Source: Escherichia coli | Lineage (GTDB): Bacteria; Pseudomonadota; Gammaproteobacteria; Enterobacterales; Enterobacteriaceae | DNA: 64,000 nt | Assembly (NCBI RefSeq): GCF_016026235.1 | Contig: NZ_CP065613.1 | Direction: 5' to 3' (one strand) | In this document: piece after piece, positions 1 through 36,897 of the stretch | Layout: each line of letters begins with the position of its first letter | Numbering within the stretch: position 1 is the first letter of the stretch | Made by a program: the position numbers and the translations under genes | Notes under the pieces: generated by a model | What the model was told of the DNA's origin: nothing | What the model saw: the letters and a program-made list of their open reading frames with translations, nothing else | Database searches by the model: none

Positions 1-394
1 GAGGCATGATAAGCACTCCAGTCAATGAGTATCACAACACGAGACATTCCCCGCGTAATCTTTTGGGTAATTCGCTGAAAAATGGTGGAAACCTCATTTT
101 GCAAATGTCGATTCCCCAACAGTCGATCCACCCGCTTTATTTTGTTTTTAACTGATGCCGTACCGGTTAAATGACGCCCGATACTGGTAAGTGTGAGGGA
201 AGCGCCATTTATTACAGCATTAGTTGCGTCAATCAGTGATTTTTGACGGTAAAGATGCAAAGGGGCCAGTATGTTGTTAAGGAAATTTTGGCATAATGAA
301 CGTGCAGGCATAGTGGTGATCTCCTTGAAATTGTTAGCACAATCAATTAGATCACATCTCACTATGCCTGTCTTGTTTTCTGGGGATTCCTCAG
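1..394 (-). mobile_element. Partial copy (left end, first 394 bp) of an IS4-family IS10-like insertion sequence, running off the window start
   Basis: Bases 1-394 are the exact reverse complement of 35604-35997. Terminal inverted repeat TTTTCTGGGGATTCCTCAG at 376-394. Transposase start codon would be at 309-311 on the minus strand (partial CDS 1..311). Confidence 0.85.
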
Positions 395-452
395 GGGAAT
401 TCTCCGATCCCGGCTAGATTGTATTTTGTACAGGGAAATTAAAGTATGAAAC

Positions 453-478
453 GCGGGCACAGTTATCACCAGCCCGCG
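453..478 (-). terminator. GC-rich stem-loop downstream of uidR (possible terminator/attenuator)
   Basis: Inverted repeat CGCGGGC-N12-GCCCGCG immediately 3' of the uidR stop on the minus strand; weak U-tract. Confidence 0.35.
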
Positions 479-489
479 AAATGAGAGGA

Positions 490-32480: not shown

Positions 32481-33128
32481 ATGTCCGATAACGCTCAACT
32501 TACCGGTCTGTGCGACCGTTTTCGTGGTTTTTATCCTGTTGTGATCGATGTTGAAACAGCCGGATTTAACGCCAAAACCGATGCGCTGCTTGAGATTGCC
32601 GCCATCACCCTGAAAATGGATGAACAAGGCTGGCTGATGCCGGACACCACATTACATTTCCACGTCGAACCATTTGTCGGCGCAAATTTGCAGCCAGAGG
32701 CCCTCGCCTTCAACGGCATTGACCCGAACGATCCCGATCGCGGCGCGGTCAGCGAATACGAGGCGCTGCACGAAATTTTTAAAGTTGTACGTAAAGGTAT
32801 TAAAGCGAGCGGCTGTAACCGCGCCATTATGGTGGCGCACAATGCCAATTTTGATCACAGCTTTATGATGGCCGCCGCAGAACGCGCCTCACTGAAACGT
32901 AACCCGTTCCACCCTTTCGCCACTTTTGACACTGCTGCACTGGCCGGGCTGGCACTCGGACAAACCGTATTGTCAAAGGCTTGCCAGACCGCTGGCATGG
33001 ACTTCGACAGCACCCAGGCACACTCCGCGCTGTACGACACCGAACGCACTGCTGTGCTGTTTTGTGAAATCGTCAACCGCTGGAAACGTCTGGGAGGCTG
33101 GCCGCTACCTGCCGCCGAAGAGGTGTAA
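32481..33128 (+). CDS. rnt: Ribonuclease T (DEDDh 3'-5' exonuclease)
   Basis: 215 aa; exonuclease motif I (VVIDVETAG). Confidence 0.95.
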
Positions 33129-33220
33129 TCGAGTCGATGCCTGATGACATGCAATGATTCAGGCATCTATAGTGAGGCTATTCCACGCATCAAGCATGAT
33201 ATTCACGGGGAATAGCGTTA

Positions 33221-35603
33221 ATGGCAGATAATCCAGACCCTTCATCGCTCCTGCCGGACGTGTTTTCACCGGCGACCCGCGACTGGTTTCTTCGCGCCTT
33301 TAAACAGCCGACCGCTGTCCAGTCGCAAACCTGGCATGTGGCGGCGCGAAGCGAACATGCGCTGGTGATTGCACCGACCGGCTCCGGGAAAACGCTGGCA
33401 GCATTTCTCTACGCCCTCGATCGGCTCTTCCGCGAAGGCGGCGAAGATACCCGCGAGGCGCATAAGCGTAAAACCTCACGCATCCTCTATATTTCACCGA
33501 TAAAAGCCCTGGGCACCGACGTTCAGCGCAACTTGCAGATCCCGTTGAAGGGTATTGCCGATGAACGGCGGCGGCGCGGCGAAACGGAAGTCAATCTTCG
33601 CGTAGGGATCCGTACTGGCGATACGCCTGCACAGGAACGCAGCAAACTCACCCGTAATCCGCCGGATATTCTGATCACCACACCCGAATCACTCTATCTG
33701 ATGCTGACCTCCCGCGCGCGCGAAACGCTACGCGGCGTCGAAACGGTAATTATTGATGAAGTCCACGCGGTAGCGGGCAGTAAACGTGGTGCGCATCTGG
33801 CGTTAAGTCTGGAGCGGCTCGATGCGCTGCTCCACACCTCAGCACAGCGAATTGGCCTTTCTGCCACTGTGCGCTCAGCCAGCGATGTGGCAGCATTTCT
33901 TGGTGGCGATCGCCCGGTTACGGTAGTCAACCCGCCCGCAATGCGCCATCCGCAGATACGAATTGTCGTACCGGTCGCCAATATGGATGATGTCTCATCG
34001 GTCGCCAGCGGCACCGGCGAAGACAGCCATGCCGGCCGGGAAGGCTCCATCTGGCCATATATTGAAACGGGTATCCTTGATGAAGTGTTGCGCCATCGCT
34101 CGACCATTGTCTTTACTAATTCACGCGGGCTGGCGGAAAAACTGACGGCACGATTAAATGAGCTTTACGCCGCACGCTTACAGCGTTCCCCGTCTATCGC
34201 CGTTGATGCGGCCCATTTCGAGTCGACCTCCGGCGCAACCTCTAACCGTGTACAAAGTAGCGACGTTTTTATTGCCCGCTCACACCACGGCTCCGTCTCT
34301 AAAGAACAACGAGCAATCACCGAACAGGCGCTGAAATCGGGTGAATTACGCTGCGTGGTCGCAACCTCCAGTCTTGAACTGGGGATTGATATGGGCGCGG
34401 TGGATCTAGTGATTCAGGTGGCAACGCCGCTTTCTGTTGCCAGTGGGTTACAACGCATTGGTCGCGCCGGACATCAGGTTGGCGGTGTATCTAAAGGGCT
34501 GTTTTTCCCCCGTACCCGGCGTGATTTAGTCGATTCCGCAGTCATTGTAGAGTGTATGTTCGCAGGCAGGCTGGAAAACCTGACACCACCGCATAATCCT
34601 CTCGACGTCCTTGCGCAGCAAACCGTTGCCGCCGCGGCGATGGATGCATTACAGGTAGACGAATGGTACTCCCGCGTACGCCGTGCCGCACCGTGGAAAG
34701 ATCTGCCAAGACGTGTTTTTGACGCCACGCTGGATATGCTTTCCGGGCGCTATCCCTCTGGCGATTTTTCTGCTTTTCGCCCCAAACTGGTCTGGAACAG
34801 GGAGACCGGGATATTGACCGCCCGACCTGGCGCTCAATTGTTGGCGGTTACCAGCGGCGGCACCATTCCGGATCGTGGCATGTATAGCGTGTTATTACCC
34901 GAAGGTGAAGAAAAGGCCGGTTCGCGGCGGGTGGGTGAACTGGATGAGGAGATGGTATATGAGTCGCGGGTGAACGACATTATCACTCTCGGCGCTACCT
35001 CATGGCGGATCCAGCAAATCACCCGCGATCAGGTGATTGTGACTCCTGCTCCGGGTCGTTCTGCCCGGCTCCCCTTCTGGCGTGGTGAAGGTAACGGACG
35101 TCCGGCTGAATTAGGCGAGATGATCGGCGATTTTCTTCATTTACTGGCGGATGGCGCGTTCTTTTCCGGGACTATTCCCCCGTGGCTGGCAGAAGAAAAT
35201 ACGAACGCCAATATTCAGGGGTTGATTGACGAGCAACGCAACGCGACGGGCATCGTTCCGGGGAGTCGCCATCTGGTCCTCGAACGGTGCCGTGATGAAA
35301 TTGGCGACTGGCGTATTATTTTGCACTCTCCCTATGGAAGACGGGTGCATGAACCCTGGGCGCTGGCGATTGCCGGGCGAATACATGCCCTATGGGGCGC
35401 TGACGCGTCTGTGGTCGCCAGTGATGACGGCATTGTTGCGCGCATTCCTGACACTGATGGTAAATTGCCCGACGCCGCGATTTTTTTGTTTGAACCAGAA
35501 AAGTTGCTGCAAATTGTCCGCGAGGCGGTAGGCAGCTCGGCACTTTTCGCCGCCCGTTTTCGCGAATGCGCCGCGCGGGCATTATTAATGCCGGGGCGCA
35601 CTC
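33221..35603 (+). pseudogene. lhr: lhr (large ATP-dependent helicase-related protein), 5' portion (codons 1-794) truncated by IS insertion
   Basis: Superfamily-2 helicase motifs (APTGSGKT Walker A, DEVH box); ORF continues without stop into the IS; joins in frame with 36908-39141 after removing the IS and one repeat copy (1538 codons in total). Confidence 0.9.
35594..35603. repeat. Target-site duplication (left copy) GGGCGCACTC
   Basis: Identical 10-mer recurs at 36898-36907 immediately flanking the IS (true duplication may be 9 bp with a 1-bp boundary ambiguity). Confidence 0.8.
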
Positions 35604-36897
35604 CTGAGGAATCCCCAGAAAACAAGACAGGCATAGTGAGATGTGATCTAATTGATTGTGCTAACAATTTCAAGGAGATCACCACTATGCCTGCACGTTC
35701 ATTATGCCAAAATTTCCTTAACAACATACTGGCCCCTTTGCATCTTTACCGTCAAAAATCACTGATTGACGCAACTAATGCTGTAATAAATGGCGCTTCC
35801 CTCACACTTACCAGTATCGGGCGTCATTTAACCGGTACGGCATCAGTTAAAAACAAAATAAAGCGGGTGGATCGACTGTTGGGGAATCGACATTTGCAAA
35901 ATGAGGTTTCCACCATTTTTCAGCGAATTACCCAAAAGATTACGCGGGGAATGTCTCGTGTTGTGATACTCATTGACTGGAGTGCTTATCATGCCTCTCG
36001 TTTTCAGCTTTTGCGGGCAAGCCTGGCATGTGACGGGCGTTCTTTACCGTTGATGAGTTGTGTCGTTCCATCATCACAGACAGCGAATGCAGATGTACAT
36101 GAGCGTTTTCTGGAATCGCTTGCTGAGTGCTTTTCCCCCGGGACTGATGTCATTGTTATTACAGATGCCGGTTTTCAGGGGCGATGGTTCCAACAGCTCC
36201 GCTCCCGTGGCTGGACCTATATTTGCCGGGTACTGGGCAATCATTATTACAATGTTGGTAATGGCTGGGAAAAGGTGTCGGACTCAGGCACAAAAGCATC
36301 AACGACAGCAATTTATTTAGGTGAAGGCCTGCTGGGTCGAGATAAAAATGCACAACATGAAGGGCATTTTTATCTTTATAAAAGTAAGCCTAAAGGTCGT
36401 TGATTTAAACGCTCGAAGGAAAGAGCAACCAGACCATCGGTGACGGCTAAAGCTCGTACTGCCGGGAAATCACCATGGTTTATTTTCACAAACAGTACTG
36501 AGTTCTCGCCAAAACAGGTAATGAAATTATACAGCCGTAGAATGCAAATTGAGCAAAATTTCAGGGATGAAAAAAATCCTCGCTGGGGATTTGGACTACG
36601 GTTTGGTGCCAGTCATTCATCCGGGCGGGTCACGGTATTGAGTCTGATCGCAACATTAGCCAGTATCATTATGTGGTTAAGCGGTTTCAGCCTGGAAAAC
36701 AAAGGGATACATCATAAATATCAGGCAAATACAGTGAAGCACAGGCGAGTCATCTCGTTATTAAAACTGGCGGAGAATGTGATTCGACATTCTCCACTCA
36801 TACTAAACACACTGTCACTTGACGCAGGGCTGAAAGTTCTACAGCAACGGTATACCAATATGATAATGGTTTACTAAATTTTCTGGGGATCCCTCAG
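35604..36897 (+). mobile_element. IS4-family, IS10-like insertion sequence (about 1294 bp) inserted in lhr
   Basis: 19-bp terminal inverted repeats CTGAGGAATCCCCAGAAAA (left) and CTGAGGGATCCCCAGAAAA (right, reverse complement); single transposase frame; flanking direct repeat; a second partial copy lies at 1-394. Confidence 0.9.
35687..36877 (+). CDS. IS10-like DDE transposase, frame interrupted by an in-frame TGA at 36401-36403 (segments 35687-36403 and 36404-36877)
   Basis: Blocks resembling IS10 transposase (KRVDRLLGNRHL, SDAGF, YSRRMQIEQNFRD, YQANTVKHR); both segments are in the same frame; the catalytic glutamate region lies after the TGA. Confidence 0.8.

Follow-up and report, generated by a model that had tools for sequence, protein, structure and literature searches.

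Two inverted copies of ISEc60 bracket a 35-kb interval of the Escherichia coli chromosome and form a probable latent rearrangement site

Introduction

Inverted copies of IS4-family insertion sequences (ISs) occur in the composite transposons Tn10 and Tn5, in which two copies of IS10 or IS50, respectively, bracket a passenger segment. ISEc60 is a catalogued member of the same family, 1294 bp long, whose intact copies elsewhere encode a 396-aa DDE transposase; in the literature, it was found only in two incidental mentions. The present analysis concerns two copies of ISEc60, named A and B, in a 64,000-nt stretch of Escherichia coli DNA (the window), where they lie in opposite orientations on either side of a 35.2-kb interval that begins at uidR and ends within lhr. 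Inverted copies of one IS are also the recombination partners in Shigella and enteroinvasive E. coli. Inversions driven by ISs are documented there as the predominant kind of structural change, and ISs account for most inversions in Shigella-type genomes (Seferbekova et al., 2021; PMC8072062). The assembly behind the window is GCA_900449985.1 from the National Collection of Type Cultures (NCTC), whose contig UGFA01000002.1 is 100% identical to the window over positions 23221–46403, with window position 1 corresponding to record position 887,200.

The explanation that fits best, and in which considerable confidence is placed, is that two independent insertions of ISEc60, an element with a DDE transposase that makes 10-bp target duplications, have created a latent rearrangement site near the terminus, in the native chromosome of an E. 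coli lineage in which ISs have expanded. One insertion would have placed copy A in the uidA–uidR intergenic region and the other copy B within lhr, in opposite orientations, leaving them with identical or near-identical sequence over at least 394 bp and most likely over about 1.29 kb. RecA-dependent homologous recombination between the copies would invert the 35.2-kb interval, an outcome that is expected because the copies are opposite in orientation and near-identical. The pair itself would have no function of its own, acting as a place where rearrangement may occur and where short-read assemblies break.

The ISEc60 pair

The repeat search over the whole window returned a single long inverted repeat with arms at 1–395 and 35603–35997, which are 395 nt long, 100% complementary, and separated by 35,207 nt. 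The 395th base pair is fortuitous, and the element boundaries are 394 and 35604, with the termini CTGAGG...CCTCAG. Positions 1–394 are thus a 100% reverse-complement match to 35604–35997, and a perfect match of 394 bp between the copies cannot be due to chance. An earlier note on this DNA, made from its letters, had described 1–394 (minus) and 35604–36897 (plus) as inverted IS copies sharing repeats of at least 394 bp, probably of the full 1.3 kb; the repeat search, the ISEc60 annotation, the junctions described below, and the 100% identity across all visible sequence of copy A agree with that description for the 394 bp.

The identity of the element follows from a 1295-bp query (35603–36897), which matches at 99.9% the copies annotated by RefSeq and the Prokaryotic Genome Annotation Pipeline (PGAP) as “IS4-like element ISEc60 family transposase”; the name rests on these PGAP-labelled copies. 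For instance, annotated copies are present in E. coli CFSAN029787, FDAARGOS_943, RMDEC332, RMDEC364, and VL46, and the likeness to ISEc60 as it stands in the EIEC-type strains CFSAN029787 and FDAARGOS_943 covers the nucleotide sequence (99.9% over 1294 bp), the terminal repeats, and the 10-bp duplications. Full-length ISEc60 is found in 14 of 5,426 complete E. coli genomes, in up to 39 places per genome. The element starts with CTGAGGAATCCCC and finishes with GGGGATCCCTCAG, and its terminal repeats, CTGAGGAATCCCCAGAAAA and CTGAGGGATCCCCAGAAAA, match at 18 of 19 positions. The intact 396-aa homologous transposase scores 74 bits on Pfam DDE_Tnp_1 (PF01609; cut-off 23) and 360.5 bits on NCBIfam NF033591, “IS4 family transposase” (cut-off 152). 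The catalytic glutamate of the IS4 family lies in a Y-(2)-R-(3)-E-(6)-K signature, which copy B has as YSRRMQIEQNFRDEK (window 36530–36574), 3′ of a nonsense codon described below. A perfect 10-bp target duplication was seen at 12 distinct ISEc60 sites, namely, lhr, uidA–uidR, and ten more, and the targets at these twelve sites resemble a GGGAATTCCC-like palindrome. The ISEc60 copies that have no matching duplication are located at rearrangement junctions or in a tandem pair.

Copy B in lhr

The features of copy B and of the gene that it interrupts are as follows.

33221–35603, plus strand: 5′ part of lhr, codons 1–794, running in frame into the IS to give a 1060-aa fusion open reading frame (ORF) with its stop at 36403
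35594–35603, no strand: left target-site duplication of copy B, GGGCGCACTC, recurring at 36898–36907
35604–36897, plus strand: copy B, complete ISEc60 of 1294 bp inside lhr
35687–36403, plus strand: transposase ORF of copy B, cut short after 238 codons by TGA at 36401–36403 (AGA in other copies)
36521–36877, plus strand: leftover 3′ transposase frame, 118 aa, called as a separate gene in the source assembly and matching the C-terminal part of DDE_Tnp_1
36898–36907, no strand: right target-site duplication of copy B, GGGCGCACTC
36898–39141, plus strand: 3′ part of lhr

Copy B entered lhr by simple insertion and divides the gene after codon 794, because GGGCGCACTC stands on both sides of it and because excision of the IS with one duplication, joining 33221–35603 to 36908–39141, restores an uninterrupted 1538-aa Lhr. 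In the uninterrupted 4617-bp lhr of FDAARGOS_943, RMDEC332, and K-12, GGGCGCACTC is present once. The insertion would inactivate lhr, and the exact 1060-aa Lhr–IS fusion product is on record only in GCA_900449985.1. The lhr insertion junction is absent from all 5,426 complete E. coli genomes searched, and no full-length copy in them is 100% identical to copy B (best 99.9%). Short-read contigs of close relatives indicate that the insertion is common to a small sub-lineage. It is most improbable that the insertion is an artefact in which a repeat was misplaced in the long-read assembly. Nothing specific speaks for such an error, apart from 1–2-bp length errors in some IS copies of NCTC PacBio assemblies of related strains (loci L039 and L040), whereas the insertion is bounded by clean junctions and a perfect 10-bp duplication, and independent short-read contigs of relatives end, by arithmetic, at the lhr insertion point.

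In contrast to the intact copies of ISEc60 elsewhere, the transposase frame of the lhr copy is broken by a nonsense codon at position 239. A single base separates it from the copies in RMDEC332, in CABEFB020000009.1 (locus L013), and on the uidA side in FDAARGOS (locus L023): T at 36401, where these have A, changes AGA to TGA upstream of the catalytic glutamate motif. DDE_Tnp_1 matches copy B in two pieces split by this TGA, of which the 238-codon fragment holds the first part only. Copy B cannot make an active transposase.

Copy A near uidR

Copy A lies at the edge of the window, and the following parts of it are visible.

1–394, minus strand: copy A, ISEc60, uidR-proximal, with only 394 of 1294 bp inside the window; terminal repeat at 376–394 and transposase codons 1–103 read from 311 down to 1
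395–404, no strand: target-site duplication of copy A, GGGAATTCTC, on the uidR side

In K-12, GGGAATTCTC is present once at NC_000913.3 position 1,696,363, which is 90 bp past the stop codon of uidR and 292 bp ahead of the start of uidA. Full-length copies of 1294 bp occupy the same site in the same orientation in RMDEC332, FDAARGOS_943, CABEFB020000009.1, and JAALAC010000002.1 (loci L021 and L059), and RMDEC364 has ISEc60 annotated at the same uidR-side junction. In RMDEC332, the L013 and L021 loci, and the short-read relative VTAZ01, the outer IS end is followed by the matching duplication GGGAATTCTC and then by uidA. The simple picture upstream of window position 1 would be a complete 1294-bp copy A, followed by GAGAATTCCC and the uidA leader, and we infer that copy A is quite probably full-length in this genome as well.

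Several points weigh against the explanation preferred here, the first being that the window edge cuts off 900 bp of copy A together with its outer flank. The 238-aa transposase product is recorded at exactly five other sites of GCA_900449985.1 and not beside uidR, where the flank contains an in-frame stop that rules out a longer transposase call; because of these two observations, copy A most likely does not have the TGA. It follows that the two copies are probably not strictly identical, differing by at least one base in 1294, at IS position 798. In addition, the source contig is not among the matches listed for the UidA and UidC alleles of relatives, which is weak evidence given that similar contexts were merged and at most 24 blocks were covered, and beyond copy A there may be a further rearrangement, a deletion, another IS, or an allele difference. 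Lastly, the 35-kb interval is inverted in no assembly examined.

In the only rival explanation with real weight, copy A has been truncated or rearranged beyond the window edge. All that is left of it would be a remnant, or a hybrid produced by rearrangement, as might follow if an IS-mediated deletion had removed uidABC, and the pair would be shorter or less similar. This is considered unlikely, though clearly less so than any other rival. The missing UidA and UidC matches and the missing 238-aa fragment beside uidR, where the near-identical JAALAC01 assembly has the TGA allele, are in its favor, as is another ISEc60 copy of the same genome (locus L046), which lacks a target duplication and lies at an apparent deletion. 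However, all five relatives with long contigs (RMDEC332, FDAARGOS_943, L013, and L021 among them) carry a full-length copy at the copy A junction, and if two full copies had recombined, the hybrid would itself be full-length. RecA-dependent exchange would be supported even by the 394 bp that are visible.

The uidA–uidR target is also occupied in GCA_031665585.1, where an ISEc60 (locus L068, 1418–2711) sits at the same 10-mer GGGAATTCTC in the opposite orientation, with a flank that is 99.4% identical. The occupation of this target in flipped orientation, in a more divergent background, argues for an ISEc60 insertion hot spot.

The interval and its orientation

The interval between the copies and its genes, in order, are as follows.

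395–35603, no strand: interval between copies A and B, 35.2 kb, from uidR to the 5′ part of lhr
490–1080, minus strand: uidR, 196-aa ORF, first gene in the interval, at the position of the annotated uidR of FDAARGOS_943 and of locus L002
Start of the interval: uidR, hdhA, malI, malXY, add, ydgJ, blr, ydgT, ydgK, rsxABCDGE, nth, dtpA
Continuation: gstA, pdxY, tyrS, pdxH, mliC, anmK, slyB, slyA, ydhIJK, sodC
End of the interval: ydhF, ydhL, nemRA, gloA, rnt, lhr′

The interval is collinear with K-12 MG1655, RMDEC332, and FDAARGOS_943 at 98.4–99.9% identity, and its sole length difference from them is one added 96-bp unit in rsxC. The gene content listed in the earlier note and its statement that the present gene order is that of K-12 both hold in these alignments. 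From 394 to 35604 and from 36897 onward, the window has one orientation and order relative to K-12 and to both annotated relatives. The interval is uninverted in GCA_900449985.1, because it is collinear with K-12, because lhr stands on both sides of copy B with a perfect 10-bp duplication, and because excision restores Lhr; the earlier note had likewise held that no inversion has occurred here. Of the two marks of a completed inversion between ISs, a reversed gene order and exchanged duplications, neither is seen in the window.

The same evidence bears on the idea of a composite transposon, in which the two copies and the intervening 35 kb would have arrived, or would move, as one unit. The geometry is that of Tn10 and Tn5, with IS4-family elements inverted around a passenger segment. 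However, the supposed passenger consists of core chromosome that stands where it does in K-12, with its genes in the same order. Copy B is flanked on each side by a duplication of its own, as is copy A in relatives, and the close relatives FDAARGOS_943 and RMDEC332 have copy A without copy B. Moreover, composite transposition of the IS10 type falls steeply with length, and a 37.8-kb unit would be essentially immobile. A composite transposon, with a single flanking duplication and a foreign passenger, is ruled out by the separate duplications and the native gene order; unlike in Tn10 and Tn5, each copy was inserted separately into the native chromosome around a 35-kb segment of housekeeping genes.

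The tandem array in rsxC lies within the interval, at window 12613–13226, and comprises 6.4 copies of the 96-bp unit (32 codons). RsxC is 772 aa here and 740 aa in K-12, FDAARGOS_943, and RMDEC332, which have one unit fewer. Short-read assemblies collapse the array, giving 640 aa, or break there.

Recombination between ISEc60 copies

Recombination between inverted repeats yields inversions, and a length of 394 bp suffices for RecA. That such pairs are recombination substrates, as the earlier note had supposed, is illustrated by FDAARGOS_943, the closest complete genome, in which the uidR-side copy has swapped flanks with another ISEc60. In this genome, copy A is adjoined on its outer side by ompG–ycjW–ycjX in place of uidA, while a second ISEc60 lies 253 kb away in the opposite orientation, with uidA on one side and an IS1 followed by ycjV–pgmB–ycjT on the other. 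The duplications are swapped as well, one copy being flanked by GGGAATGCCT and GGGAATTCTC and the other by GGGAATTCTC and GGGAATGCCT. The partners are given below.

FDAARGOS_943 inversion partners: locus L001, 5101–6394, and locus L006, 5903–7196; record 1,107,410–1,363,205

The reciprocal junctions and the exchanged 10-bp duplications point to an IS-by-IS inversion in FDAARGOS_943, that is, as read from the assembly, a reciprocal recombination of two inverted ISEc60 copies that inverted about 253 kb with copy A as a partner. By K-12 map positions, this inversion spans the terminus region. The 35-kb pair differs from the inversions of Shigella and enteroinvasive E. coli in that it is only potential and in that its inversion would lie in one replichore and not across the terminus.

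With regard to the feasibility of inverting the interval, no Ter site, the polarity of which would be reversed by inversion, was found in the window, the single match with one mismatch being no more than expected by chance. Only two FtsK-orienting polar sequence (KOPS) motifs and four Chi sites occur in the interval, where the GC skew is close to zero (−0.009); a barrier of polar motifs to inversion was considered, and KOPS, Chi, and GC skew give no strong argument either way. Most interval genes are on the plus strand, which we take to be the head-on orientation in this region of K-12. There is no obvious barrier to inverting the 35-kb interval, and inversion would disrupt no gene except the already broken lhr. 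We infer that the pair may recombine at a detectable rate.

Assembly breaks in relatives

The earlier note had also named the locus as a candidate for assembly ambiguity, and the short-read contigs of relatives do terminate at the IS edges, with their far ends placed by arithmetic. Contig DAEAOL010000049.1 of a short-read relative measures 35,198 bp. The part of it that was retrieved begins to align at window 401, and by arithmetic the contig would span window 401–35598, i.e., the interval between the copies. Similarly, VTAZ01000050.1 (35,482 bp) starts 329 bp inside the IS, and its far end was placed in the same way. Other short-read contigs of close relatives end at the IS edge.

Spread of the TGA allele

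The TGA allele is carried by six ISEc60 copies of the source genome, in lhr, motA, and four other places (loci L043–L047 and L052). In GCA_031665325.1, copies at three of these sites (loci L071, L072, and L075) have the same flanks with A at position 798 where the source has T. Position 798 is the only difference in two of the three site alignments, and the third adds one 14-bp gap. The presence of the intact allele in the same copies with the same flanks in a relative suggests, tentatively and somewhat short of an even chance, that the TGA allele may have spread by ectopic gene conversion among dispersed ISEc60 copies. This would resemble the concerted evolution of dispersed IS copies, since one point mutation stands in six copies while a near-identical relative has the wild-type base; it differs in being read here from assemblies, in which short-read polishing of repeats could mimic the pattern, and the allele pattern could be a polishing artefact of this kind. 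As an alternative to conversion, the lhr copy might be a defective element mobilized by transposase supplied in trans, although trans mobilization is unusual for cis-acting transposases of the IS10 type. If the TGA allele did spread by conversion, it would be direct evidence of ongoing homologous exchange among ISEc60 copies.

Further ISEc60 copies and gene losses

Further ISEc60 copies were noted outside the window. On the source contig, at about 3.75 Mb, locus L046 (5084–6377) has an ISEc60 without matching duplications after the FAD-binding gene that follows queD, as does L075, and the L046 copy abuts a cut-short FAD_binding_4 gene. The genes around this copy are presumably ygcN and ygcU, between which about five genes of the K-12 order would be missing, and the copy looks like the mark of an IS-associated deletion common to a relative. 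In GCA_031665585.1 (locus L069, 1418–4015), two ISEc60 lie in direct tandem, 10 bp (GGGATTTACC) apart, with GGGATTTTCC on both sides; this tandem pair is an IS dimer.

Gene losses were also seen. In the source genome, motA is split by ISEc60 (loci L043 and L048; contig UGFA01000005.1). A premature stop interrupts uidB at codon 7 in JAALAC01, the near-identical assembly (locus L021, 5309–5335), and the same 448-aa uidB call is present in GCA_008180225.1. The annotated start of uidB is an ATC codon. The motA and uidB losses are pseudogenization typical of enteroinvasive lineages. Within the window, ydhS is interrupted at 53773–54540 by a 768-bp IS1-type element with the 9-bp duplication CGTGAAGCG; the element is 91% identical to IS1A of FDAARGOS_943, a genome in which this insertion is absent.

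Implications

The ISEc60 pair is a routine outcome of IS expansion and involves no new mechanism; its importance is practical only. It explains the fragmentation of short-read assemblies of this lineage at uidR and lhr, and it marks a site where inversion isomers could confuse synteny or typing analyses. For the biology of the organism, lhr would be knocked out in this sub-lineage, and the pair is one more instance in which enteroinvasive-type E. coli shows IS expansion and the plasticity that ISs drive.

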